Assembly: GCA_030645735.1 (NCBI GenBank)
Contig: JAUSNP010000006.1
Location: 196,095 to 260,094 of the forward strand
Direction of reading: 5' to 3'
Source: Candidatus Moraniibacteriota bacterium
Lineage (GTDB): Bacteria; Patescibacteriota; Minisyncoccia; Moranbacterales; UBA2206
DNA: 64,000 nucleotides
This document shows, one piece after another, positions 575-44,682 of this stretch; positions within the stretch are counted from its first letter, which is position 1, and every line of letters begins with the position of its first letter. The notes under the pieces were generated by a model. The model did no database searches, had not been told where the DNA came from, and saw nothing but the letters and a program-made list of their open reading frames with translations. The translations under genes and the position numbers were made by a program.

Positions 575-735
575 AATAAATATTTATCAAGAGCGATGGT
601 AGAGCACTGGCTCACTGACCCATCCAGCAACCGTCTCGAAATGACTTTCGGGAAAGGGTGCTAATTCCAGCTCGGCTTGCTAGCGCTTTCCGAGAAGAGA
701 TAAATGGTCGATTTTTTATTTTCTCTTTCTCGATG
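575..735 (+). promoter_or_regulatory. SAM-I (S-box) riboswitch in metK leader
   Basis: TTATCAAGAGcgatGGtaGAGcaCTGGCtcactGAcCCatcCaGCAACC...GGTGCTAATTCCAGC...GAGAAGAGATAAA matches S-box consensus (P1 TTTATC/GATAAA 583-588/699-704, GGTGCYAAnTCCnGC box); followed by a GAGAAGAGA/TCTCTTTCTC helix and T-rich tract (expression platform) before metK ATG at 768. Confidence 0.75.
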
Positions 736-5155: not shown

Positions 5156-7606
5156 TTATTTCATTCCTATTTTCTTAAGATACTTTTTTATTTTATTGCC
5201 ATAACGAACTGCCCTGCAACTTGCTAATCTATCGTAAGTCATTTGCACATGCTGATACTGTAACTGCAACTGTTTTTTCTCATCTTGCAAATTATTGTTT
5301 TCTTTTTGCAATTGCGCTTTCTCAGATTGCAATACTATATTATCAGGACTATGCAATTTGCTTAAAATCAATTCTCGCTCTAAAAGTTCCACCTTATTGC
5401 AATCAGGCTTAGTTATTTTTAAACTATTGATTAAAAATTTTAGAGACTTTTCTTTTTCAATATCCAAGATTTTATGCACCATATTATAATCAATCAATTC
5501 TTTATAAATATCCAAATTTGTAATATCATCTATGCTTTTTAGAAACCTATTTTTAATATTTAAGGTAGTCAGTAAACTTTCAAGTCTATTATTTCCAGCA
5601 TAATCTCTAGCAATAACAATAAATTGCTTTTTGAATATGATTGCAAATATTACGCAATGATAGGAATCGGTTATGACAAATTCGCTATTCTTAATATAGT
5701 TCAACCAATGGGAAACACTATGATATACAAATCTTTTTTTACCAAATATTTCTTTTTCTATGCCTCTAATGTTCAAGAGGTTGCCATTCATTTTTTCAAT
5801 AACATTGGTCACGAATGGATTTATTTTTATAGCCTCTTCCAATTTTTCATCTAAGCTAAAATATGCTATATATTTTTCGGTGTGCTCCTCGATAATATCA
5901 TCATTTATTATTTCCTGATATCCACTCTCGTCTATTAGAAAAGTTGGATCTAACACGCATTGCGCATCAAAACCAAAAATATTTTTGCAAATATCAACAC
6001 CTTCTTTTTCACGTACAGATATCGCTGAAAAATTCGTTAGTGCATCCTTAACTTTTTTTATCTCATCAATTGTTCCTTTCCAATGGGTCTCAGCAAAGCT
6101 GGGTGCATAGGAAAAGATATTTTTTGAAGGAAAGACAAAATTTAAAAAATATTTTCCAATATCATTCTTAAATACATTACTTAGATAATTATAATTCCAG
6201 ACTTGATCACTGCCGACTACAAAAGTATCAAATTGCTCGTTCAATTTAACCAAATCATTATCGGTCTTGCATACATGTGTCGTTTTGATAAAATTTTCTC
6301 TAAATTTATAAAATCCTATCGCGCATAATTTATCCTCCTTGCTTTCAGGAATTTCAGAAATATAATTAATTATTTTTGCAGTATAGCCAAGATTTTCAAT
6401 ACTTTTCCACAATGCAAATGCCTGCAATGTTGCACCAAAATTACGGCTAGGGAGTCGCATATTGAAAATTCCCACGCAATTTTTCACTTTATCACCTTCA
6501 TTATTCAGATGCTTGGATATCAAATCTCCAATATTACCATCATGCATCAATAATTCTTCAAAAAATTCTTCTCTCTTGGGATGTTTATCGCATGGCAGAC
6601 TCAATGCAAGATTCCCCTGATGAGCTATAGCAAGAGGAACCTTCTCTGCGATTATTTTAGTTTTTATTTCATTAAAAACAGATTCCCCTTTTGCGCTATT
6701 TACTAAAATCAATGAGGTGCCTTTATCATCATCCAATTCATTCTTATAACTACCTATGGCCCAAAAATCCCCCAATGTTATATCTGATTGCCTCGGAAGT
6801 GTCGCAAATGGACAATTGGTACATAGAGGTTTAAGATATAAATTCCCCAAAAATCCTCTTCCAAAGACATCACCATTATTCATTATTTCTTTATGGATTG
6901 TATTATTATTTTCATCATTCATTGAAAAACTGTATGTTTTCCATCCCGTTGATTTGTCTCGAAATTCTATTTTTCTAACCCTTTCGCCAGTTAACTTCTC
7001 AACATCTTTCATATATTTATCAAAAACCAATGGCGAAGGAGTGCCATGACACATCACATCAACAGTGACCAATTTCTCATAATCTTCCTGCAAAAAAGCA
7101 CAAAGTCCAGCAACCTGGCATGGGGTTCCCACAAACAAAACCCAGTTATCCTCTTGGAGCAGTTTTTTGATGTCCAAAAATATGTCGCCAATTTCACTTT
7201 GTAGATACTTTGAGCCTCGCAATTTAGGCAAATCATTCTCGTCAGCTATTATTACATGTCTCAGTTTGTTATCAGCATCAAATCCAGCTCCACAAACAAA
7301 ACCATTCTTACTGAAAATATATTTCGCGATAATGGAAAATAGACCTCCTGACGAAGAATTTTTCCTAATAAACTCATCCTTACTCCACCCAGCATAGCAG
7401 GCAGGATCTGCACTTTGATTTTTTTTGATGTATTTATTGAGAACAGGGCAGGTTTTTCTGCATAAATTACAACTTGTGCATTTTACTTCATCGATAATAG
7501 GATACAAAAAACCTTCAATGTCTTTCTGCATTGAGATTGCTCCACTTGGACAAACACTATAGCAAGCGCTACATCCAGAACATTTATTTTTTGGAACTAT
7601 TTGCAT
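5156..7606 (-). CDS. fusion protein: 2x[4Fe-4S] ferredoxin + FrhB/FdhB-like (F420 hydrogenase beta-like) domain + polysaccharide pyruvyl transferase-like domain + C-terminal coiled coil
   Basis: N-term CSGCSACYSVCPSGAI...CTSCNLCRKTCPV (two Cx2Cx2Cx3CP); FrhB-like domains are known partners of CsaB/WcaK-type pyruvyl transferases in polysaccharide loci; last ~70 aa heptad-rich (ELLERELILSKL...LQKENNNLQDEKKQLQLQYQHVQ). Confidence 0.55.
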   Translation of the reverse strand: MQIVPKNKCSGCSACYSVCPSGAISMQKDIEGFLYPIIDEVKCTSCNLCRKTCPVLNKYIKKNQSADPACYAGWSKDEFIRKNSSSGGLFSIIAKYIFSKNGFVCGAGFDADNKLRHVIIADENDLPKLRGSKYLQSEIGDIFLDIKKLLQEDNWVLFVGTPCQVAGLCAFLQEDYEKLVTVDVMCHGTPSPLVFDKYMKDVEKLTGERVRKIEFRDKSTGWKTYSFSMNDENNNTIHKEIMNNGDVFGRGFLGNLYLKPLCTNCPFATLPRQSDITLGDFWAIGSYKNELDDDKGTSLILVNSAKGESVFNEIKTKIIAEKVPLAIAHQGNLALSLPCDKHPKREEFFEELLMHDGNIGDLISKHLNNEGDKVKNCVGIFNMRLPSRNFGATLQAFALWKSIENLGYTAKIINYISEIPESKEDKLCAIGFYKFRENFIKTTHVCKTDNDLVKLNEQFDTFVVGSDQVWNYNYLSNVFKNDIGKYFLNFVFPSKNIFSYAPSFAETHWKGTIDEIKKVKDALTNFSAISVREKEGVDICKNIFGFDAQCVLDPTFLIDESGYQEIINDDIIEEHTEKYIAYFSLDEKLEEAIKINPFVTNVIEKMNGNLLNIRGIEKEIFGKKRFVYHSVSHWLNYIKNSEFVITDSYHCVIFAIIFKKQFIVIARDYAGNNRLESLLTTLNIKNRFLKSIDDITNLDIYKELIDYNMVHKILDIEKEKSLKFLINSLKITKPDCNKVELLERELILSKLHSPDNIVLQSEKAQLQKENNNLQDEKKQLQLQYQHVQMTYDRLASCRAVRYGNKIKKYLKKIGMK

Positions 7607-7640
7607 ATTGTAGAAAAAATCATTTACCTCATTTTAAAAT

Positions 7641-9893
7641 TTACATTTTTTTATAAATTTTATAATAAATAATTTTAAATAAATTAAACATTGCTTTTCT
7701 AAAAGTAGTTCTGATTTTTTTAGGAATATGATTTTTATTTCTAAACACCGTGGATACAGGAAGATGAGAACAAATATACAATTCCCACTTTAAATACTCC
7801 CTGCTAAATCCTGATTCAATTGTATTATCGTTGCATATTAACCCCGTGGTTGTATTCTTTTTTAATTGTTGCAAAATCAATTCAGAGCTTTTATCAAGAT
7901 GATGATTTGACATTACTTCACCATAAATACTAATCATTTTTTTCACATAAATATCTTTGGAATAATTCTCCTTCGCAAACTCTAAGGATTTTTTACCTCG
8001 CTCAATAATTTCTTTAGGATTATCAATCAATTTTTGCAACTCTTCTGCAAAATATTTTTCACTAACCGCTAAACCACAACCTGGTGAATTAACAACCTCG
8101 GGTAATGCCGAGCCATCACTTTCTAGTGCCAACACCATCTTGCCACAACTCATAGCCTCAATTGCCATCATGCCAAATGTTTCCTGCCTAGAAGGCATTA
8201 GGAATATGTCACAAGCCTGATATAGTCTTGCCAACAATTTATCATCTTTAATCCAGCCATATTCGATGATATTAAATTTATCCTCAAATCCTTTTAACAA
8301 CCCTTTTTGTCCAACAGTAATTAATGTGATTGTTTTCAAATTTTTTAGTCGCGCTAGGGCGTGCTTTATTATATCTAGACCCTTGTACGAGCCAGCATCA
8401 GCTCTAAACATAATAGTAATTGATTTTTCCTGGATGTTAAATTTTGCTTTTGCTAATTTAATATCTACAGCATCAAACAATTTTTGATTAACACCAAATG
8501 GCAGTAAATAAGCCTTTTTTCCTTGCCAAATTGGTGATTGTTCAACTTTATTTTTCATCCAATTTGATGCTACGACAGCCGTAATTTGTGAATTTTGAAT
8601 AGCCTGCTTTTTTAATTCAAAATTTAATGCACTAATATCCTTATCAAGTACAAATGGCTCATTGATATATGAACAGTCCTTGCAATGAACTTGCCATTTT
8701 TTACAATCAAAATGGTGCACGCAATGGCCACCCAAAAAAAATGGATCATGCAATGATAAAATAGTAGGTTTTAATTTAGTCATAATCGGCAAATAATTCA
8801 AGTCTATAATGTTGTGAATTAGATGCAGATGCACAATATCCGATTCAAAAAATATTCTCTCTTGTATCAAGCCCTTTGTAGCGTCTTTAGTATTGAAATC
8901 ATAAGCATATGTGTTGAAATCATCAGACTCTTTAAATAAAACTAACTGTTTAGAATCTATTGCGTTTTTACGTAAATCCAGATGTAAATCATAGCCATTG
9001 AACTTATTTCCGATTAAATCATAGGAAGAAATTTGTAAATTTTTCACTATTTTTTTCTCTATATATTCTAGGGCTATACTATATTCTGCACACTGAAAGA
9101 AATCACGCATATCATGATAAAAAGTCAACTTATCTGAAGCAAGTAATTTTATATCTTCATCAGTTAAATTATTTATTACTGAGATAAATAACGCGCTGTA
9201 TTCCTCATTACCACGACTCTTACTCCGGATTCCTTGCCTCTTTGAAGAATCGCGAGCCGTAACCAACACTTCAGATATTAATTTGTGAGGAAATTTTAAA
9301 AAGGCTCTATAGAAAAATTCAAAATCTTGAGCAACCAACTGACTTTCATCAAACAAGCCAACCGTATCAAAACACACCTTGGGTATTAGCAACGTGCAAC
9401 CATGAGTTTGATTATAAATAACTGGATGAATATTTGATTTTAATCTTGGAGGATATTTGTCTATATGTTTTGCGTAATCAGTCTGATATATTTTTTTATA
9501 TTTTTCATTTATACCATCAAGATCAGACATTATGATAGTGTCTCTATTTTCCAGCTTACTCAACTCATCAACTTGCCGTGCAATCTTAGTTGGATAATAC
9601 ATATCATCGTGGCTTAACCATGAAAAATAGCTACCCTTCATATTTTTTATCCCAACATTCAATGCTGTCGTAGTTCCACCATTTTCTTTTGAAAAATATC
9701 GCACCTTATCCCCATATGATTTAACTATCTCTTCAGTATTGTCTTTCGAACCATCATTAACAACTATAATTTCAATATTTTTATATGTTTGGGCAAGCGC
9801 ACTGTCAATAGCCTCTCTCACATAGTTTGAACCATTATACACTGGTATAACTATTGATATTAAGGGATTGAAATTAATTGTTACCATAATCAT
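7641..9893 (-). CDS. bifunctional glycosyltransferase, N-terminal GT2 + C-terminal GT4 domains
   Basis: N-term ISIVIPVYNGSNYVREAIDSALAQTY..VVNDGSKDNT (GT2); C-term ...QETFGMMAIEAMSCGKMVLALESDGSALPEVV (GT4 EX7E). Confidence 0.8.
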   Translation of the reverse strand: MIMVTINFNPLISIVIPVYNGSNYVREAIDSALAQTYKNIEIIVVNDGSKDNTEEIVKSYGDKVRYFSKENGGTTTALNVGIKNMKGSYFSWLSHDDMYYPTKIARQVDELSKLENRDTIIMSDLDGINEKYKKIYQTDYAKHIDKYPPRLKSNIHPVIYNQTHGCTLLIPKVCFDTVGLFDESQLVAQDFEFFYRAFLKFPHKLISEVLVTARDSSKRQGIRSKSRGNEEYSALFISVINNLTDEDIKLLASDKLTFYHDMRDFFQCAEYSIALEYIEKKIVKNLQISSYDLIGNKFNGYDLHLDLRKNAIDSKQLVLFKESDDFNTYAYDFNTKDATKGLIQERIFFESDIVHLHLIHNIIDLNYLPIMTKLKPTILSLHDPFFLGGHCVHHFDCKKWQVHCKDCSYINEPFVLDKDISALNFELKKQAIQNSQITAVVASNWMKNKVEQSPIWQGKKAYLLPFGVNQKLFDAVDIKLAKAKFNIQEKSITIMFRADAGSYKGLDIIKHALARLKNLKTITLITVGQKGLLKGFEDKFNIIEYGWIKDDKLLARLYQACDIFLMPSRQETFGMMAIEAMSCGKMVLALESDGSALPEVVNSPGCGLAVSEKYFAEELQKLIDNPKEIIERGKKSLEFAKENYSKDIYVKKMISIYGEVMSNHHLDKSSELILQQLKKNTTTGLICNDNTIESGFSREYLKWELYICSHLPVSTVFRNKNHIPKKIRTTFRKAMFNLFKIIYYKIYKKM

Positions 9894-14055: not shown

Positions 14056-15375
14056 TTATTTTAATAGCCATTCATGTTTAATATCACAAAGGCCTCTATA
14101 TTTAGCTTTTAATCCTACTGCAAATATTTTTAATTCTTTATATTTTTGTTTCACATCATAGTAAATTTTTTCGCTATCGTCAAAGCAAGCAACGTTCAAA
14201 TAATAATCTCCTTTTAATATCGGCATACTATCAAAATGCAAAACGATATAGTCGCTCCTATTGCCAATTTCAAAATTATCCATCTGAGTATTATAACTAA
14301 AAATTCTTTCGTCTTTCTCAATTCCATAAAGGCCTATGCCAATATTAACACCATTAGCTTCCTTATTAATTTTATAATAAATTTTTATATCCACTGATTC
14401 ACCTGTTTCAAAAGCATTTTTTACTTTTCCGTCCTTATCCAAAAATTCAATGTTGGTTATTTCTGCGACTTTATTTTTTCTTTCTTCCTCCAATTTTATT
14501 TTTTCCAATTCGATTCTTTTCTTTTCAAATTCCAACTCCCGTCCCTTCATATTCTTCAGGTTTTTTTCCGCTTGAATGATTTTCTGTTTTTCAATTTCTT
14601 CCATTCGCCTTTCCTCATCTGACATATTTTCATAAACATAAGCATTGCCCACCTCTTCAGCCTTTCCAATTTTCACAATTTTTCCGTTGCGCAAAAGCAT
14701 TGCTCGATCACAATATCTCTGCACCGTGCCAGTATCGTGCGTCACTAAAATAACCGTTTTACCCATTTTCTTATAACGATTAAATTCCGTCAGACATTTA
14801 CTCTGAAAATTTGAATCTCCTACTGCCAATACCTCATCCATCAGCAAAATCTCACGATTAGCATGAATAGAAACTGAGAAAGCTAAACGCACTTGCATAC
14901 CAGAAGAATAATTTTTCAATTTTTGATCGATGAATCGTTCTAACTCTGAAAAAGCTACGATTGAATCAAATTTTTCATCAATCTGTTTTTTGGTCATTCC
15001 TAAGACAGTTGCATTTAGATATACATTATCTCGTCCAGAAAGCTCGGGATTGAAACCAATGCCCAATTCCAAAAATGGTGAAATCATGCCGTCTATTTCC
15101 ACTTTTCCTTTGTCGGCCTGATAGATGCCAGCCAAAACCTTCAAAAGTGTTGACTTACCTGAACCATTGCGACCAATGATACCAAAAAACTCACCTTTCT
15201 TCACTTCAAAAGAAACATCGTCCAATGCTTGAAATTCCTCAAAACCGCCACTCTTAAAAAGACCCGTGACCGCGCCACGCACAGAAGTCACCTTTTCATG
15301 AGGGATGCGGAAGGTTTTTGAGACATTTTTGACTGAAATAGCAATATCTTTATCCATTTTTCTATTGTACAACAT
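14056..15375 (-). CDS. wzt: polysaccharide ABC exporter ATP-binding protein Wzt/TagH-like with coiled-coil linker and C-terminal putative glycan-binding domain
   Basis: Walker A GRNGSGKST, signature SSGMQVRLAF, Walker B LLMDEVLAVGD; then Glu/Lys-rich coiled coil and ~150-aa beta-rich C-terminal domain. Confidence 0.8.
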   Translation of the reverse strand: MLYNRKMDKDIAISVKNVSKTFRIPHEKVTSVRGAVTGLFKSGGFEEFQALDDVSFEVKKGEFFGIIGRNGSGKSTLLKVLAGIYQADKGKVEIDGMISPFLELGIGFNPELSGRDNVYLNATVLGMTKKQIDEKFDSIVAFSELERFIDQKLKNYSSGMQVRLAFSVSIHANREILLMDEVLAVGDSNFQSKCLTEFNRYKKMGKTVILVTHDTGTVQRYCDRAMLLRNGKIVKIGKAEEVGNAYVYENMSDEERRMEEIEKQKIIQAEKNLKNMKGRELEFEKKRIELEKIKLEEERKNKVAEITNIEFLDKDGKVKNAFETGESVDIKIYYKINKEANGVNIGIGLYGIEKDERIFSYNTQMDNFEIGNRSDYIVLHFDSMPILKGDYYLNVACFDDSEKIYYDVKQKYKELKIFAVGLKAKYRGLCDIKHEWLLK

Positions 15376-18630: not shown

Positions 18631-18666
18631 TCTGTAGGGGTTCTGTAGGGGTTTCCCTCCTACAGA
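18631..18666. repeat. REP palindromic element copy 1 (partial half-copy + full imperfect copy)
   Basis: tCTGTAGGGG + tCTGTAGGGGTTTCCctCCTACAGa immediately 3' of the RAYT stop codon. Confidence 0.8.
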
Positions 18667-19305
18667 TCACTCTTCCAGCAAATATCTTCTCATCTCACTT
18701 CTGCGTTGATTTATTTCTTTCGCGTTTATATCAACAAATTCACTATAATCACTCCTGTCTTTAAATTGACTTAAAATAATTTCTGAATTACATAATTTTT
18801 CAACACTATCATCCAAGTAGTTTTTCAAACTTGATCTAAATTCTCTTGAATTATGAATAATATTGTTGCCATTAACATAAGCTGACAGGTACAATAAATA
18901 TTCATTGCTATTTACATGCACAGCCTTGAATCTTCCTTGAAATAATGAACCACTTCTTTTGTTCCTGTGATTAAAATATCCTGTATAGCCACCGCTAATG
19001 CGTTTCATAAATTCAGATATACCGCCATCTCTCAACTGTTTTAATATGAAATGAAAATGATTTGGAAGTAAATTATAGGCAATTATCTCAACCAATGCAT
19101 CATTCTGTAGGGGTTTCACCCCTACAGAGTTTGTTTTACTTTTTATATATAAACTAATGACTGGCTCAATTTGATTAAATTCTCTTATTGATTTAAGAAA
19201 TCTTGAATAATCATATTTGTCCAAAAAAATATCTCGCTTCTCCACTCCGCGATTAAATATATGATAATATTCTCCATTTACAAACTCAAAAGAAAAATTT
19301 CCCAT
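18667..19305 (-). CDS. IS200/IS605-family Y1 (HuH) transposase, REP-associated tyrosine transposase (RAYT)-like, carrying an in-frame REP insertion
   Basis: N-term EYYHIFNRGVEKRDIF (YHV..RG..IF motif), HuH motif NHFHFIL, Tyr-containing helix YLLYLSAYVNGN; residues SVGVKPLQ are encoded by REP copy 2. Confidence 0.7.
   Translation of the reverse strand: MGNFSFEFVNGEYYHIFNRGVEKRDIFLDKYDYSRFLKSIREFNQIEPVISLYIKSKTNSVGVKPLQNDALVEIIAYNLLPNHFHFILKQLRDGGISEFMKRISGGYTGYFNHRNKRSGSLFQGRFKAVHVNSNEYLLYLSAYVNGNNIIHNSREFRSSLKNYLDDSVEKLCNSEIILSQFKDRSDYSEFVDINAKEINQRRSEMRRYLLEE
19105..19127. repeat. REP palindromic element copy 2 (inside RAYT ORF, in frame)
   Basis: CTGTAGGGGTTTCACCCCTACAG perfect 9-bp arms, 5-nt loop. 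Confidence 0.85.
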
Positions 19306-19327: not shown

Positions 19328-19349
19328 CTGTAGGGGTGAAACCCCTACG
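19328..19349. repeat. REP palindromic element copy 3 (degenerate right arm)
   Basis: CTGTAGGGGTGAAACCCCTACg followed by ttaCCCacac. Confidence 0.75.
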
Positions 19350-19372
19350 TTACCCACACATTATTATTTTTT

Positions 19373-19786
19373 TTAAAAACTCGTGAAAATTATAAATACC
19401 AGCCAAGCAAAAAGCAATGTCAAAACCAATAGCCCAACCAACCATATGATTAGAAAAAGAAACGCTGTTCTATTTAGCCAGATATGCTCTTTTAGAAATT
19501 TTGGCTTGTAATTTTTAAATCCCTTCCACAATCCCCCTGCAATGAAAATTGTATCTATTACAGGCCAAACAATGAGTATTATAAATCTAACAATACTATT
19601 GCGGGAAAAGTTAGTAGTTGAAGTCAACAACACAGATGCAACTAGAATATTAAATGCTATTGAACCCCACATAATCAAAGCCAACTTTCGCATGAAAACA
19701 AAAAGCAAAGCATTGGATATTGCGAACAAAACAAGCGCCAAAATCATAATATTGACCGTAAACTGATCCGGCCCTATATCACTCAT
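19373..19786 (-). CDS. small polytopic membrane protein (4 TM), hypothetical
   Basis: 137 aa, four hydrophobic segments; second gene downstream of the LCAT-like lipase gene on the same strand. Confidence 0.4.
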   Translation of the reverse strand: MSDIGPDQFTVNIMILALVLFAISNALLFVFMRKLALIMWGSIAFNILVASVLLTSTTNFSRNSIVRFIILIVWPVIDTIFIAGGLWKGFKNYKPKFLKEHIWLNRTAFLFLIIWLVGLLVLTLLFAWLVFIIFTSF

Positions 19787-19847
19787 ATTTTTACACTTAA
19801 TAATTAAACAAGTTAATCAAGCCTTATTTACTTTTTATTTCCTATAT

Positions 19848-19883
19848 CCGTAGGGGTTTCACCCCTACATTACCCCTACATTA
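19848..19883. repeat. REP palindromic element copy 4 (with duplicated right arm)
   Basis: CcGTAGGGGTTTCACCCCTACAttaCCCCTACAtta. Confidence 0.8.
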
Positions 19884-20291
19884 TTTCTTACTTTTATAAA
19901 CCGACATGATTTTGACTAGGGAGGTTACGATGAAGACGGCGTAGAAAATGCCAATTATCAGCATGTTGAAACTGCTGGATATAGCACCGCTGATGCCCAT
20001 GCCACCACTTCGGCCTTGAGAGTTGATCAAGAAAGTGACCAGCATAATCACCGGCACAAACCAGCGGGCAAATCTCCACCAAGCCTGAAAAACTTCGTCA
20101 CGCATTTTGTAGGTGATGAGAGAGAGGAGAAAAACAAACGGAAGAGGAGAAAAAGGATATACAATAAAACCAAAAGTTTCCTTACAAATACCCCGATATG
20201 CTCCGCAAAAATTATATAGAAGCGCGAGCAATAAAAACACAAATGCTCCCCCTGCTATCCCACTTATCCATAATACACTTTTTTTGCTCAT
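19881..20291 (-). CDS. small polytopic membrane protein (4 TM), hypothetical
   Basis: 136 aa, four hydrophobic segments; immediately downstream (18 nt) of the LCAT-like lipase gene. Confidence 0.4.
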   Translation of the reverse strand: MSKKSVLWISGIAGGAFVFLLLALLYNFCGAYRGICKETFGFIVYPFSPLPFVFLLSLITYKMRDEVFQAWWRFARWFVPVIMLVTFLINSQGRSGGMGISGAISSSFNMLIIGIFYAVFIVTSLVKIMSVYKSKK

Positions 20292-20308
20292 ATTTTTTAA
20301 TAAAAGAA

Positions 20309-23300
20309 TTAATACTTAATTTCGACTATGCCTTGTTTGGTTGTTAGCTCAGGAACAATCAACCCTACCAACTTCTGTTTGATTGCTCGCCTATCAGCAT
20401 CATCGTCATCATCCCTGTCATCATGCAATTCTTGCGGTCTAGTCATAATCATTGTGACATTTTGCTTTGGTCGATAGTGTGATTCGATGGCACTAGAAGA
20501 TGTGCGCAGATTAGTGGCGAACATCGAATATGTCGCGCCCTTTCTATTTAAGCTCCAGTTGTACTTTGCCATTGTATCATGAAGCTTGGTCACCACGCCA
20601 TTATAGCTAATTGAATTTAGCTCAACAGCCACCCTGCGATCATGGCTTACGAATTTTTCTGTATATTTGAGAATTGTGACATTTCCTGCTTGATCAGTGA
20701 TTGTGGCTGTGGTCATTTTGCCAACATATCTCTCATTTTCTCTTTCTCTGTCGCTATACTTTGAATTCTTTTTGGATATTGCGGAGGTGACATAAGTCAC
20801 TGTGGTTGGATTTTCGTCAATGCCTTCAACTCTCATTGAATTGGTCTGAGTGTCAAAAAATATTCTGGCTTCTGGCGGGGTTTGATCTGCTGTGGGTTGC
20901 ATGACTGTTTCGCCGACTTTCGGTTGCAAAGAAAAATCAATGACGCTGTTTCCATCAAAGTCCACTGCCAATGGTGAGGCATTTTGAATTGTCCCATCAA
21001 TCACTTCCATAGTAACCTTGGCCTTGTCAGAAGAAGGAACTCCGGCAAAAGTTGTTTTGGCCACCACCGCGTCATTTTCCACCTCTTGCATCTCCAAGGT
21101 AAATGAACCTTCGGCCAAGCCGTCCAGCGTCACTGTGTGCGCCACAGAGGCTGACAAAGAGATGAATTGCACTTCGCCAAAGCGTTTGTATATTGCCCCA
21201 GGAATGGTCGAAACTGAAGCACTGATTTCATTGCCAGAGGTGTCATGAGCTGACAGTGCCAAAGGTGAATGCAAGATATAATGCAAACGCTTTTCGGAAC
21301 TATTTGATGGTTTTGAATCTGAAATAAATTGAGGAAAAGATGTTGATGATTGAGTTAAAATATTATCTTTAATAAAACTTCGTAATTCTGAAACTTCTAG
21401 AATATCCGCATGCTCTATGCTTCTGACAACGGGAATATTATAATCATCCAAATCTACCCAATACCTCTTCACATTTTCATTTGCACTCATCGCCAACGCA
21501 CTTGGCGCCACCACTGTACCATCGCCATCAATCACTGTGTCCGGAGTATATTGAATCTTGTCCCGATATGCGAGACATTTGCCTTCAAACACCTCCGAAC
21601 ATTCGATGCCTGTCCAATATTTGATTGTTCCAAGCGTCTCTTCGCCAAAACCAGCGATTTGATAAACAGAAATTGATGCTGGCACTGTCCAATTGTCATC
21701 TAGTGCTTGATGCACATCTTCAGCATTACCTAACAGTTTTGCATTGATTGAACTTGGACTGACAACATCATTTGAATCAGCTGAAACTTTTCTTTCAGAA
21801 TCCAAAAGGAAATCATGCAATTCAGTTGGGTTGTCGATTTCATTGCCATATTTATTGATGAAAGATTGCGTAAGTGATCCATTTTCAAATGAAATCATTG
21901 GTGTGCTCGTTGAACTGCCATTTCCATTGAAATATGCGCTTGATGGCAAAAGATTGTATGCGCTTGGCATGTTATTAGCTAATGTTCGAGCAACTTTTGG
22001 AGCAAGCAGCAAGGGAAACCAATCTGCAGGCAAGCCTTGATCATAGCCATGCAAGATTCCACCAATTGCTTGTGGCGTTCCGACTTGTGGCACGGCCACC
22101 ATAACAATCTTGTCAATCAGACTCTCAGCCTCTGCTCCCAATTTGTTGGTCAACGCTTTTGCCAACAGCCCACCATTGGAATGCGCTACGATGGTCACTT
22201 TGCCAGTTTTGGAAGTTTCCGCCAATCGTCTCAACTCACGCACAATGTATGGCGAGATTGACGCTTGGGTATAAGAAATATTTTTCCCATCAAATGTTCC
22301 AGAAGTCAAAATATCTTCCAGTGACAATCGCCAATCATATGGCATAGCCACATAATCATTGATAATTTTGTCATCATTTTTCCATTTTTCCAAATCAGCC
22401 TTAAATGAATTGTAAATATTTTTTTGCCCAATGAGTGGCGATACATTCACCTCATCCAAAACATCTCTTGTATAAACATCTGGATCTAGACTTTTGCCGT
22501 TTTTATCTAGAAATAATTTTTCCACATCCGCATCGCGATTAGGTTCCCAAAGTTGATTCTCTGTTCCAATCACTCCATCAGTATACAACCGACTCGCCTC
22601 CAATCCTGGCAAGAAAAGGACGTTGGATGCGCCACTGGCTGTTACTGATGGCACAGAATTTTCAATTTCTGTGGCGCTCCAACTTTCTGAAGTATAGTCG
22701 CCAATTAGTTTTTCTCCGCCTACATTTGGCGCGGATTCAATTTCAGGTCCGGCTGGATCGCCGTACCAATTGCTTTTCAAAAGAACTTTGGTTTTGTCAT
22801 GAAAGCTCGGGTCACTGCCTGCGACATTGGTGCAATATCCACCACAAATCGGACCATAGATTCCATAGTCATCTGGATAATTCAGCTTGCACTCATTGAA
22901 ACAGTTTTCAAAAAGTGCATTATATACATCTGGCTTTGTGACTTTGGCTGTGACAGCCGTGTCTTGAGAATTGTTTTGGAAATTGGAGTTTTCTATGAAC
23001 AAATAACTTTGTGAATTCCATTCGCCATATTCCGTCTCAACTTTTATATCCGCATAGGCATTGTTTTTGAAATCACAGTTGCTCATTTTCACTCGGCCTG
23101 AATAGAGGGTCATAGCTGGAGCAGCCTCATTCACAGGCGCCGCGTAGGCTACTGGAAAAAACATATCCTTGAGGCCGTTATTCATTCCCAAGCCAGGACA
23201 GCTGTCCGTGTCATAGGAAAATTCATCACCCATCTGAGAAAATTCGACAAATTCAAAAATAGATTCTGGATCGTCCACATAATCCCCTGGGGCGCTGAAT

Positions 23301-23686
23301 TCAATCGTGGCGGTTGGCGACATAAAACAACGCGGATTATATGCTCCGCCCTCTTCAAAAGTCAGTGGGATTCCAGCCAATTTGATTTTTTCTTCTTTGG
23401 TGCCTTGAGCAATGACATTTCCACTGATGGACAAGTGACGAAAAGCTAATTGCGTTCCTTTTTCAATAGTCAAAGTCACGCCCCAATTGACATAAATGTT
23501 TCCATAGTTAGATAAATCCGTACTATTGTTCCAAGTGGTGTTTTCACTGATATACAAATCTTCCAATGGCAAAACTTCGCCAGCTACAATATTTTTCGAC
23601 AAAGCCATGAGATCAATCCGCAAAGGACTGATGGCAAAGATAACGATAAAAATTATGACACCCATGTTTTTGATTGTCTTGTGCAT
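20309..23686 (-). CDS. large secreted multidomain protein with LCAT/PGAP1-like alpha/beta-hydrolase (lipase/acyltransferase) domain
   Basis: N-terminal signal/anchor MGVIIFIVIFAISPL; central PYDWRLS motif (LCAT-family hallmark) followed by lipase nucleophile elbow VTIVAHSNGG (A-H-S-x-G as in Bacillus LipA); N-terminal region with beta-helix-like NxxN repeats; acidic DDRDDDDDADRR near C-terminus. Confidence 0.6.
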   Translation of the reverse strand: MHKTIKNMGVIIFIVIFAISPLRIDLMALSKNIVAGEVLPLEDLYISENTTWNNSTDLSNYGNIYVNWGVTLTIEKGTQLAFRHLSISGNVIAQGTKEEKIKLAGIPLTFEEGGAYNPRCFMSPTATIEFSAPGDYVDDPESIFEFVEFSQMGDEFSYDTDSCPGLGMNNGLKDMFFPVAYAAPVNEAAPAMTLYSGRVKMSNCDFKNNAYADIKVETEYGEWNSQSYLFIENSNFQNNSQDTAVTAKVTKPDVYNALFENCFNECKLNYPDDYGIYGPICGGYCTNVAGSDPSFHDKTKVLLKSNWYGDPAGPEIESAPNVGGEKLIGDYTSESWSATEIENSVPSVTASGASNVLFLPGLEASRLYTDGVIGTENQLWEPNRDADVEKLFLDKNGKSLDPDVYTRDVLDEVNVSPLIGQKNIYNSFKADLEKWKNDDKIINDYVAMPYDWRLSLEDILTSGTFDGKNISYTQASISPYIVRELRRLAETSKTGKVTIVAHSNGGLLAKALTNKLGAEAESLIDKIVMVAVPQVGTPQAIGGILHGYDQGLPADWFPLLLAPKVARTLANNMPSAYNLLPSSAYFNGNGSSTSTPMISFENGSLTQSFINKYGNEIDNPTELHDFLLDSERKVSADSNDVVSPSSINAKLLGNAEDVHQALDDNWTVPASISVYQIAGFGEETLGTIKYWTGIECSEVFEGKCLAYRDKIQYTPDTVIDGDGTVVAPSALAMSANENVKRYWVDLDDYNIPVVRSIEHADILEVSELRSFIKDNILTQSSTSFPQFISDSKPSNSSEKRLHYILHSPLALSAHDTSGNEISASVSTIPGAIYKRFGEVQFISLSASVAHTVTLDGLAEGSFTLEMQEVENDAVVAKTTFAGVPSSDKAKVTMEVIDGTIQNASPLAVDFDGNSVIDFSLQPKVGETVMQPTADQTPPEARIFFDTQTNSMRVEGIDENPTTVTYVTSAISKKNSKYSDRERENERYVGKMTTATITDQAGNVTILKYTEKFVSHDRRVAVELNSISYNGVVTKLHDTMAKYNWSLNRKGATYSMFATNLRTSSSAIESHYRPKQNVTMIMTRPQELHDDRDDDDDADRRAIKQKLVGLIVPELTTKQGIVEIKY

Positions 23687-23846
23687 GTTTTTGTTTGTTT
23701 TTTATTTTTTTAGATATTAAAAAACCACGGAGTTACCCGCGGTCGATTGGCATAAAAATATCGCACAACACAAAAGCTCTCAGATATCCTGAAAAATTTC
23801 TAGCGACTATCACAGTGCGTCTTGTATTTTTGTTTTTCACACCTAA

Positions 23847-23875
23847 ATTATACTAGATGCTCATTATTTTGACAA
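23847..23875 (-). promoter_or_regulatory. sigma70-type promoter for the LCAT-like gene (minus strand: TTGTCA-17nt-TATAAT) embedded in palindrome TTGACAaggTGTCAA
   Basis: plus-strand attata 23847-23852 (= TATAAT on minus), 17-nt spacer, tgacaa 23870-23875 (= TTGTCA); palindromic 15-mer 23869-23883. Confidence 0.5.
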
Positions 23876-23924
23876 GGTGTCAAGAATTCATCATGACCCA
23901 AAGTTATCCACAGCCCATCTGATT

Positions 23925-23947
23925 CTGTAGGGGTGAAACCCCTACAG
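23925..23947. repeat. REP palindromic element copy 5
   Basis: CTGTAGGGGTGAAACCCCTACAG perfect, immediately 3' of the wzm stop. Confidence 0.85.
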
Positions 23948-23949
23948 AG

Positions 23950-24774
23950 CTAGATGTCCTCCGCGATCCGTGGAGCCATTTTTCGGTAGGACCAGATGCT
24001 GAAGGCGAAAGCGCCGAGCACGATGGAGATAAAGGCAGTGTATTGAGTGGAGCTGGCGAAGTGATTATTAATCAAAGATTCTTTGGTGAAGTGGATGATG
24101 AAGGCCAAAGGATTGAGCAGAATCAATGTGTGATATTTAACTGGCAAAGTTACTAAAGGATAGATGATGGGTGAAGCATACATGATGATCATGAGAAGCA
24201 CTTCCCAAATCATGGAAAGGTCACGGAATTTCACGTAGAGTGGTGCCGTTATCAGAGCAAAAGACAGGATTATAATATAAATGAAAACTGAGAACAGCAG
24301 AAATACGCCAATGGCAGCAAGACTTGGCATGAAACCCTTGAGAGCGAAAAAGAAAACAATCACGACTAGATTCATTAGGAATATCAAGGTGGCGTTGATA
24401 GTGGAAGCCAAAATGATGGTCCAACGCGGAACATAAATTTTGGTCACCAATTGTGATTTGCTCAACAGCGAATTCATGCCGGCACCGGTACCCTCAGCAA
24501 AAAAATAGAACATCATCAAAGAAACCAAAAGTTGCAAAGAATAGGTATCTGTTCCATCGACATTTCTTAGATTGAAAACTGAAGAGAAAACAAAATTCAA
24601 AATCGCAAAAGTCAAAAGCGGTTTCAAAAGCGCCCATAAATAGCCCAAAACACTGCCATGATAGCGCAGTTTGAAATCGGTTTTGGCTAGCATCCAAATT
24701 AGCTCTTTGTAATTCTCATGTTGTCTCATATAGAAGTCCATAAAGTCCGTAAAGCTTAAAGTCCATAAAGCCAT
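23950..24774 (-). CDS. wzm: polysaccharide ABC exporter permease (ABC-2 family) Wzm/TagG-like
   Basis: YKELIWMLAKTDFKLRYHGSVLGYLWALLKPLL ABC-2 signature start, 6 TM; first ~14 codons overlap the decamer repeat array so true start may be at a downstream Met. Confidence 0.8.
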   Translation of the reverse strand: MALWTLSFTDFMDFYMRQHENYKELIWMLAKTDFKLRYHGSVLGYLWALLKPLLTFAILNFVFSSVFNLRNVDGTDTYSLQLLVSLMMFYFFAEGTGAGMNSLLSKSQLVTKIYVPRWTIILASTINATLIFLMNLVVIVFFFALKGFMPSLAAIGVFLLFSVFIYIIILSFALITAPLYVKFRDLSMIWEVLLMIIMYASPIIYPLVTLPVKYHTLILLNPLAFIIHFTKESLINNHFASSTQYTAFISIVLGAFAFSIWSYRKMAPRIAEDI

Positions 24775-24833
24775 CGGTCTTATTTTTTAATACAGTTCAA
24801 AAGCTTAAGGTCCGAAAGCTATTGGTCTAGCTT
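24733..24833. repeat. phased AAAGTCC / GGACTTT decamer array (imperfect large palindrome) B
   Basis: AAGTCCATAAAGTCCGTAAAGCTTAAAGTCCATAAAG...AAGGTCCGAAAGC. Confidence 0.7.
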
Positions 24834-25178
24834 TTTGATAAAACCAGAAAGCATCTTAGAAATTTCAAATGATAAATTATATAATCTTGTGAATTCCTCC
24901 TCTTTAATATAGCCTAGATCCAAAGATAGATAAAGCATGGAACGAACCTCGCCACACGAGCCCTTGGCAATAAATAAAAAGTGTTTAAATTCTTTATCAC
25001 CTTTTCTCTCAAACCCCTCAGCGATATTGTTCATCACCGAAACTGCCGCTCTTTGAATTTGGTCTCTAAAAGAAAAGTCCCTATTCAATTTAAAAATATT
25101 ATAGATATCCAAAGTGAGCATGCGCGACTTTTGCCAAGCAATAATATCCTCAAATTTTTCTATTTTTATATTTTGCAT
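24819..25178 (-). CDS. four-helix-bundle protein (TIGR02436 / 23S rRNA intervening-sequence protein family; Avd-like fold)
   Basis: AWQKSRMLTLDIYNI...FRDQIQRAAVSVMNNIAEGFERKGDKEFKHFLFIAKGSCGEV matches the family consensus. Confidence 0.8.
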   Translation of the reverse strand: MQNIKIEKFEDIIAWQKSRMLTLDIYNIFKLNRDFSFRDQIQRAAVSVMNNIAEGFERKGDKEFKHFLFIAKGSCGEVRSMLYLSLDLGYIKEEEFTRLYNLSFEISKMLSGFIKKLDQ

Positions 25179-44659: not shown

Positions 44660-44682
44660 CTGTAGGGGTTTCACCCCTACAG
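44660..44682. repeat. REP palindromic element copy 6
   Basis: CTGTAGGGGTTTCACCCCTACAG perfect. Confidence 0.85.

Follow-up and report, generated by a model that had tools for sequence, protein, structure and literature searches.

Enzymes related to LCAT and LPLA2/PLA2G15 (PF02450) belong to one well-known family whose members shift acyl chains from lipid to lipid with no need of acyl-CoA. They form an acyl-enzyme on a serine and transfer the acyl group to water or to a hydroxyl acceptor, which makes them acyltransferases by mechanism. Small proteins encoded beside membrane-targeting toxins are likewise familiar: Tli4, the partner of the lipase effector Tle4, is a soluble periplasmic protein, and the immunity proteins of pore-forming colicins are small and polytopic. 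Here we analyse a 64,000-nucleotide stretch of DNA (the window) from a Candidatus Moraniibacteriota bacterium (contig JAUSNP010000006.1), in which a gene for a 1125-residue exported protein of the LCAT family, referred to below as the lipase, is followed directly by a gene for a 136-residue membrane protein, mp1. The lipase-mp1 locus is a two-gene module conserved across Patescibacteria, which also go by the name candidate phyla radiation (CPR).

CPR bacteria account for much of bacterial diversity. They are reported to have no complete lipid synthesis and to be enriched in lysolipids; it has been proposed that their lipids come from other cells, and phospholipase A has been named among possible origins of the lysolipids (PMC7242380). 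Their nutrient acquisition has been described as largely unknown, and a part in breaching host envelopes has been proposed for phospholipases of Patescibacteria (PMC11665869). For the lipid-auxotrophic CPR bacterium Vampirococcus lugosii a secreted phospholipase, Vamp_34_196, was proposed to damage host membranes and supply lipids; the likeness to the present lipase is one of proposed role, and no conserved membrane partner is described for it (PMC8080830). A PF02450 lipase has also been mentioned as cargo of a type VI secretion system (T6SS) in Pantoea (PMC3942780). Our literature searches returned general proposals of secreted CPR phospholipases and no description of this lipase family or of the lipase-mp1 pair. 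The enzyme is of a known kind, and the conserved two-gene module appears to be undescribed.

Relative to LPLA2 and LCAT, to which the lipase is approximately 15% identical, the catalytic domain is here placed inside a bacterial protein of about 1100 residues, with a beta-helix before it and a beta-sandwich behind it; the family is restricted to Patescibacteria as far as seen and is always paired with a small membrane protein. Comparison with T6SS Tle/Tli proteins showed the predicted fold of the lipase to be related to that of a Tle effector. In contrast to Tle4-Tli4 of Pseudomonas aeruginosa (PDB 4r1d), however, the lipase is exported by a signal peptide outside any T6SS context, and its partner, which spans the membrane with four helices, shows no similarity to Tli4. 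Linkage to vgrG, PAAR or hcp genes was not found; the neighbouring genes are of glycan-synthesis and export, Y1 transposase-like and housekeeping types, and the lipase and its homologs begin with Sec-type signals. mp1 recalls bacteriocin immunity proteins, which are approximately 110-180 residues long, have three or four transmembrane (TM) helices and are encoded beside the gene of an exported membrane-targeting protein. Nevertheless, no sequence or fold relation to colicin immunity proteins was detected, the partner of mp1 is an enzyme rather than a pore former, and mp1 carries a very conserved cytoplasm-facing motif that is atypical for fast-evolving immunity genes.

The catalytic and flanking domains of the lipase

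An earlier sequence-only reading of this locus had pointed to three open reading frames (ORFs), the motifs PYDWR and AHSNGG, a TTGTCA-17-TATAAT promoter and the palindrome TTGACAaggTGTCAA, all of which were found in the sequence. The genes and the parts of the lipase are as follows, in window positions.

20309 to 23686, minus strand: lipase gene, exported LCAT/LPLA2-fold lipase/acyltransferase, 1125 residues
23597 to 23686, minus strand: N-terminal export signal or signal anchor, residues 1-30, with a hydrophobic core
22667 to 23569, minus strand: right-handed parallel beta-helix domain, about residues 40-340, interrupted by a helical insert at 252-291
21317 to 22633, minus strand: LCAT/LPLA2-type alpha/beta-hydrolase catalytic domain, about residues 352-790
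22328 to 22342, minus strand: PYDWR motif, residues 449-453
22169 to 22186, minus strand: AHSNGG nucleophile elbow, residues 501-506
22178 to 22180, minus strand: codon of Ser503, invariant candidate nucleophile in AHSNGG
21521 to 21523, minus strand: codon of Asp722, invariant candidate triad acid in DGDGTV, resembling LCAT DGD(345)DTV
21410 to 21412, minus strand: codon of His759, invariant candidate triad base in IEHADILE, inside the PF02450 match
20312 to 21304, minus strand: beta-sandwich region at the C terminus, about residues 795-1125, ending in a conserved Tyr and containing a DxDGxxxxD-like motif
19881 to 20291, minus strand: mp1 gene, 136-residue four-helix membrane protein, conserved cognate partner of the lipase
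19373 to 19786, minus strand: mp2, 137-residue hydrophobic orphan ORF, outside the conserved module

The lipase, mp1 and mp2 are identical to NCBI entries Q7T51_04295, Q7T51_04290 and Q7T51_04285, respectively, of a Candidatus Moranbacteria metagenome-assembled genome (MAG). The lipase scored 55 bits on the Pfam profile PF02450 (LCAT), for which the gathering cutoff is 21 (E=1.1e-14); the match pairs residues 424-763 with profile positions 68-389 of 392, and the same family is precomputed for essentially all of the lipase homologs listed. Matches to DUF7379, PGAP1 and Beta_helix were all under threshold; thus, of the two families suggested earlier for a profile search, PF02450 passed its cutoff and PGAP1 did not. 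An alignment of 52 homologs (37-82% identity) revealed Y450, D451, W452 and R453 of the PYDWR motif, H502, S503, G505 and G506 of the nucleophile elbow, and G721, D722 and H759 to be invariant. The profile score and these invariant residues bear out the assignment of the protein to the LCAT family.

For comparison with human LCAT we used a sequence in which the S181/D345/H377 numbering checked out. Ser503 aligned with LCAT Ser181 both by BLASTP and by profile alignment, and the PYDWR motif aligned with that of LCAT. The profile alignment reaches the nucleophile segment only and neither alignment extends to Asp722 or His759; the equivalence of these two residues to D345 and H377 is therefore motif-based. 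An AlphaFold2 (AF2) model generated from the 52 homologs had a mean predicted local distance difference test score (pLDDT) of 82.7 and consists of an N-terminal helix, a strand-rich part over about residues 40-340, an alpha/beta part over about residues 352-790 and an all-beta C-terminal region. Structure comparison showed that this predicted model has the three-dimensional architecture of LPLA2 and LCAT. A single-sequence search of the Protein Data Bank (PDB) gave marginal matches only, located at the nucleophile. Taken together, the data support the large protein being an LCAT-family alpha/beta hydrolase that is exported, consists of several domains and retains a complete candidate Ser-Asp-His triad. 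Neither of the outcomes that would have told against the sequence-only reading, a triad that cannot be aligned or a non-lipolytic family, was obtained.

Export is indicated by a hydrophobicity peak over approximately residues 8-28 of the lipase and by an N-terminal hydrophobic segment with a basic n-region in 50 of the 52 homologs, many of which continue with an AxA-type cleavage site. Members of the subgroup to which the window lipase belongs have instead a conserved 'ISPLRID' after the hydrophobic core, without a clear AxA site, so that the segment may be a signal or an anchor. The signal anchor proposed earlier corresponds to this hydrophobic segment. Most family members have no later TM segment.

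The domain that follows the signal forms a right-handed beta-helix in the predicted structure, as had been suspected from the sequence. Its Beta_helix (PF13229) score, 15.9 bits against a cutoff of 25.9 (E=0.01), is below threshold in the window lipase; PF13229 or NosD matches are present in some homologs. Lipase matches in relatives often begin only at about residue 300-350, and the N-terminal region is therefore variable, in contrast to the conserved catalytic and C-terminal regions. This variable beta-helix is probably a glycan- or surface-binding module. Within the C-terminal region, which is all-beta in the model, H806, S807, P808, L809, D909 and D934 are invariant among the 52 homologs and Y1125 is nearly so. 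One variant (P0026, at 6001-9502 of locus L018) has a C-terminal TM helix in place of the distal beta-region and is still followed by an mp1 homolog.

The membrane partner and its distribution

The mp1 gene begins 17 nt past the lipase stop codon. To evaluate the pairing we used the 68 non-redundant lipase loci with enough downstream DNA, and a match to the mp1 hidden Markov model was present directly downstream of the lipase on the same strand in 63 of them. The other five encode a membrane protein of 130-145 residues in the same layout with a recognisable F-x-S/K-W motif, that is, diverged look-alikes. A small gene of 76-144 residues lies just downstream of the lipase on all eight relatives' contigs that were examined individually, at a distance of 11-25 nt in seven; in the eighth, L006, the called downstream gene is a 76-residue fragment 214 nt from the lipase. 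All seven of these contigs with DNA at hand matched the mp1 profile. Since the small membrane protein is an obligate genomic partner, the earlier idea of a lipase-plus-small-membrane-protein module has substance. That idea had included two partners, however, and the genomes support only one; mp2 is unrelated to mp1 by sequence and has no relatives in 87 lipase loci.

A word-indexed search returned 99 relatives of mp1, many on contigs that also carry lipase homologs, and an exhaustive profile search extended the family to 1037 representatives at 50% clustering. This obligate and undescribed partner family has no Pfam model. Like mp2, mp1 has three to four hydrophobic segments; it is assigned four TM helices, its AF2 model (pLDDT 81.7) is a helical bundle, and from the charge distribution both termini are predicted to be cytoplasmic. 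The first outer loop carries two conserved cysteines (Cys-x6-Cys) and the second is Gly-rich. TM2 and TM3 are separated by a near-invariant Trp/Arg-rich stretch, SLITYKMRDEVFQAWWRFARW, predicted to lie on the cytoplasmic side. Fold comparison of the mp1 model with the PDB gave no match below E=1. Neither mp1, mp2 nor the lipase had a match in NCBIfam, PADLOC or PHROGs, and a defence-system or phage reading of the locus was dropped for this reason.

Seven loci contain more than one mp1 copy, with up to four in a locus and 30-60% identity between copies of the same locus. Diverged paralogs (30-54% identity) stand behind a single lipase gene in L076 (3985-6824), with four copies, and in L084 (2953-6005), with three. 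Another arrangement is seen in L017 (11634-12358), where an extra mp1 copy comes after a piece of lipase sequence corresponding to the final ~100 residues, a unit that recalls orphan toxin-tip/immunity modules. We also considered that mp1 merely anchors the lipase through the C-terminal domain of the latter; this is weakened by L018, in which mp1 is retained beside a lipase that already carries a C-terminal TM helix.

More than 700 lipase relatives were among the candidates listed by the protein search, and every named one is a CPR bacterium of Moran-, Kaiser-, Pace- or Minisyncoccota type. Scanning a single genome for each species yielded at least 589 loci with lipase relatives. Among the best 80 of these nearly all are Patescibacteria where named, and a few loci labelled 'Bdellovibrionales' or 'Nitrospira' are regarded as cases of doubtful binning or naming. 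The module thus occurs in at least 589 species-representative genomes, often in several copies per genome of about 1 Mb. Several genomes carry two or three lipases (L008 and L011 on one contig; L005, L050 and L052 in one MAG), and each of these paralogs has its own mp1.

Proposed function and competing explanations

Family, fold, conserved catalytic residues, export signals and near-universal pairing were computed here, and from them, the established chemistry of LCAT-family enzymes and the CPR literature we infer a mechanism in which we have slightly better than even confidence. The lipase would work at the membrane interface, at the surface of the epibiont, as a phospholipase A or a transacylase directed at foreign membranes, and mp1 would be its cognate partner in the membrane of the producer. 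Specifically, Ser503 would form an acyl-enzyme from a glycerophospholipid at the membrane surface, as in other LCAT-family enzymes, and the acyl chain would then go either to water, giving phospholipase A activity, or to an acceptor hydroxyl, giving transacylation. Since the enzyme would work outside the cytoplasm and occurs in a lineage reported to lack lipid synthesis, the likely substrates would be the membranes of host or neighbour cells, and the products lysolipids and fatty acids, membrane damage, or both. mp2 and the palindrome are not part of this mechanism.

The role of mp1 in the producer's own membrane could take several forms. An immunity-like protection of that membrane is plausible, although we place it somewhat short of even; the strict pairing, the paralog arrays, the remnant-plus-mp1 unit of L017 and the persistence of mp1 beside the TM-anchored lipase of L018 favor it. 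Handling of the lipid product or acceptor is rated only a little lower, a role consistent with the very conserved cytoplasm-facing motif and the tiny exposed loops. A different function, such as maturation or retention of the lipase, is the least likely of the three. As an immunity factor, mp1 would represent a new type of lipase immunity protein.

A bolder version of the proposed mechanism, to which we assign a low probability, is that lipase and mp1 constitute a lipid-acquisition machine of CPR bacteria that works by ATP- and acyl-CoA-independent transacylation outside the cytoplasm. Acyl chains removed from host phospholipids by the lipase would pass to acceptor lipids (lysolipids), which mp1 would present or take up in the epibiont's own membrane. 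If true, this would explain both how membranes are built without fatty-acid synthesis and why they are rich in lysolipids. The pair is a concrete candidate for how lipid-dependent CPR bacteria take or attack the membrane lipids of other cells, and it narrows the idea that 'they steal lipids' to two named genes with three defined candidate catalytic residues.

Several observations weigh against a lipase acting on foreign membranes with mp1 as its partner. The lipid-synthesis deficiency comes from literature on CPR bacteria in general rather than from this genome (PMC7242380, PMC11665869). The loop with Asp722 has a pLDDT below 50 in the AF2 model, two nearby loops are also of low confidence, and a profile of the 52 homologs found no LCAT or LPLA2 chain among PDB sequences at E<=0.01. 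With respect to immunity, the most conserved part of mp1 is predicted to be cytoplasmic and its outer loops are very short; this layout departs from that of known lipase immunity proteins, and the degree of conservation is unusual for an arms-race gene. Finally, in Moranbacteria the pair is located inside a surface-glycan locus, between Wzm (23950-24774 in the window) and Wzt (14056-15375), which would also fit a role in the producer's own envelope.

This last point leads to an explanation that we consider unlikely but that has evidence of its own, namely that the enzyme is an extracytoplasmic acyltransferase or esterase for the surface glycopolymer of the Wzm/Wzt locus. It would acylate, deacylate or lipid-anchor the glycopolymer, with the beta-helix binding the glycan and mp1 presenting the lipid donor or acceptor. 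The genes of the window form a large envelope-glycan locus, with glycosyltransferases, epimerases, dTDP-rhamnose synthesis, a pyruvyl transferase, MurJ and a sortase. The order glycosyltransferase-epimerase-Wzm-lipase recurs in L003/L026, L018 and L036 and partly in L007, L013 and L014, and glycan genes also adjoin the lipase in L006. The beta-helix fold is typical of polysaccharide-active proteins, and LCAT-family enzymes work by an acyltransferase mechanism. However, this order is a lineage synteny confined to Moranbacteria; the pairs of L001, L004 and L005 lie among ribosomal, SecA/Obg or tRNA-synthetase genes, and only mp1 is universally linked to the lipase. The beta-helix, moreover, is less conserved than any other part of the protein, and many homologs have a different N-terminal region in its place. 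The synteny within Moranbacteria keeps an action on the producer's own surface polymer alive as an explanation.

Less probable still is a pure toxin-immunity module analogous to Tle-Tli, in which the lipase would lyse host or competitor membranes and mp1 would serve strictly for immunity, with no acquisition of lipids. The strict adjacency of lipase and partner fits such a module, and the diverged mp1 arrays and the orphan lipase-remnant-plus-mp1 unit resemble immunity-gene arrays. Several lipase paralogs per small genome with variable N-terminal 'targeting' regions would suit it as well, as would the proposal noted above that phospholipases compromise host envelopes in Patescibacteria (PMC11665869). 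On the other hand, delivery is by a Sec signal peptide rather than by a contact-dependent injection system. Tli proteins are soluble and periplasmic, whereas mp1 is a polytopic protein whose exposed loops are minimal and whose motif on the cytoplasmic side is strongly conserved, and it has no sequence or fold link to any known immunity family. Attack and scavenging are, in addition, compatible with each other.

Upstream region, mp2 and neighbouring genes

The region upstream of the lipase contains three features.

23847 to 23875, minus strand: sigma70-like promoter candidate TTGTCA-17-TATAAT, matching 11 of 12 consensus positions
23869 to 23883, no strand assigned: perfect 6-3-6 palindrome TTGACAAGGTGTCAA containing the -35 hexamer, a single occurrence
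23723 to 23744, minus strand: terminator-like GC-rich hairpin with a T-run in the ~155-nt 5' leader, 37 nt before the ATG, from a terminator scan and RNA folding

Four sites matching at least 11 of 12 promoter positions occur in the window where first-order Markov simulation gave an expectation of 2.2, and the promoter match alone is consequently not significant. Both hexamers and the 17-nt spacing are, however, identical in L001/L008 (L001 being an 82%-identical relative). A promoter is thus plausible, with moderate support from its intergenic position, its orientation and its conservation in L001. The earlier description of it as near-consensus is correct; on statistics alone, both the promoter and the palindrome are weak.

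The sequence-only reading had also suggested that the palindrome overlapping the -35 hexamer could be an operator, and we evaluated this together with the possibility that lipase, mp1 and mp2 form a three-gene operon under its control. The palindrome is exact, extends 8 nt past the end of the segment on which that reading was based, and does contain the -35 hexamer; moreover, the three ORFs share a strand and have no canonical terminator between them. However, the chance expectation with one mismatch allowed was 0.45 per window and 34 of 100 shuffles contained at least one match. The left arm of the palindrome is absent in L001/L008, although the promoter hexamers, the spacer and most of the leader are kept there, and the whole palindrome is absent in all other relatives examined, the more distant of which have unrelated upstream regions. 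Because L001/L008 retains the hexamers without the left arm, the promoter is plausible and the operator is unsupported. In addition, mp2 has no homologs among 5.8 billion proteins or in the 87 lipase loci and is separated from mp1 by a hairpin of the repeat type described below, and the terminator-like hairpin lies between the promoter and the lipase ATG. An operator governing a three-gene operon is accordingly highly improbable, and the palindrome is probably fortuitous.

The leader hairpin is kept in L001 with three one-sided pair-preserving changes, as read by eye. It may serve as an attenuator, mark the end of a small RNA or terminate the upstream Wzm gene. A riboswitch is not claimed; the fold had a z-score of only -2.0, and Rfam gave no match in the leader at gathering score or at E<=1. 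No Shine-Dalgarno sequence precedes the lipase, mp1, mp2 and RAYT-like genes; each of their start codons follows an A-rich tract, AAACAAACAAAAAC-ATG being one example. The A-rich tract of the lipase gene (23687-23722) recurs just before the lipase ATG in L001, L009, L010, L011 and L014, relatives whose upstream regions are otherwise unrelated. In L014 two tandem copies of a sequence of about 95 nt (~5790-5990) lie directly upstream of the lipase start.

A search of 5.8 billion proteins with mp2 returned only mp2 itself. mp2 lies in an AT-rich stretch between two palindromes resembling repetitive extragenic palindromic (REP) elements, and may be a lineage-specific gene or no gene at all. An uncalled 87-residue hydrophobic ORF overlaps the start of the lipase gene in L002 (4760-5023). 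Kinship of mp2 to this ORF was rejected, as 27% identity and a pairwise E=0.015 became E=2 against all ORFs of the 87 loci.

The REP-like palindrome, a 23-nt sequence (CTGTAGGGGTTTCACCCCTACAG), occurs in six copies in the window, where none is expected by chance.

18643 to 18665: REP-like copy
19105 to 19127: REP-like copy
19328 to 19350: REP-like copy
19848 to 19870: REP-like copy
23925 to 23947: REP-like copy
44660 to 44682: REP-like copy

An ORF at 18667-19305 (minus strand) encodes a protein resembling Y1 transposases and REP-associated tyrosine transposases (RAYTs), with a Pfam Y1_Tnp match at E=4e-8 and NCBIfam REP_Tyr_transpos as the best match below cutoff. It is flanked by two inverted copies of the palindrome and contains a third, which encodes SVGVKPLQ. 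Further copies stand on either side of mp2 and a short distance upstream of the lipase promoter. Together, the repeats and this gene look like a REP/RAYT system in a CPR genome. A close relative of the RAYT-like gene (E=2.6e-107) is found at 10890-11587 of L018, approximately 1.4 kb downstream of the lipase-mp1 pair, with two flanking copies and one internal copy of identical core. A RAYT-like ORF lies within 6 kb of the pair in six of the 87 fetched loci and in the window, which seems above expectation for a low-copy gene.

Within the glycan locus, one glycan ABC exporter has 8.5 kb between its Wzt ATPase gene and its Wzm permease gene. This interval holds the genes of the lipase and mp1, mp2, the RAYT-like gene and genes for a GT4 glycosyltransferase, a secreted Cys-rich protein of 181 residues and a SpoIID-domain protein, and the Wzm and Wzt genes of L003 are likewise split by a lipase pair. 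A '23S rRNA intervening sequence protein' gene (PF05635, E=3e-36; 24819-25178, minus strand) is situated between the epimerase and Wzm genes, and its homolog in L003 adjoins Wzt. Elsewhere in the glycan locus, an ORF at 5156-7606 (minus strand) encodes an 816-residue fusion of a 4Fe-4S/FrhB-FdhB-like module with a polysaccharide pyruvyl transferase. At the edge of the window, an S-adenosylmethionine (SAM, S-box) riboswitch (581-706, plus strand; 50 bits, above gathering score) precedes the SAM synthetase ORF (768-1814) and, with the 3' end of an S-adenosylhomocysteine hydrolase gene at 8-487, makes up an ordinary arrangement.

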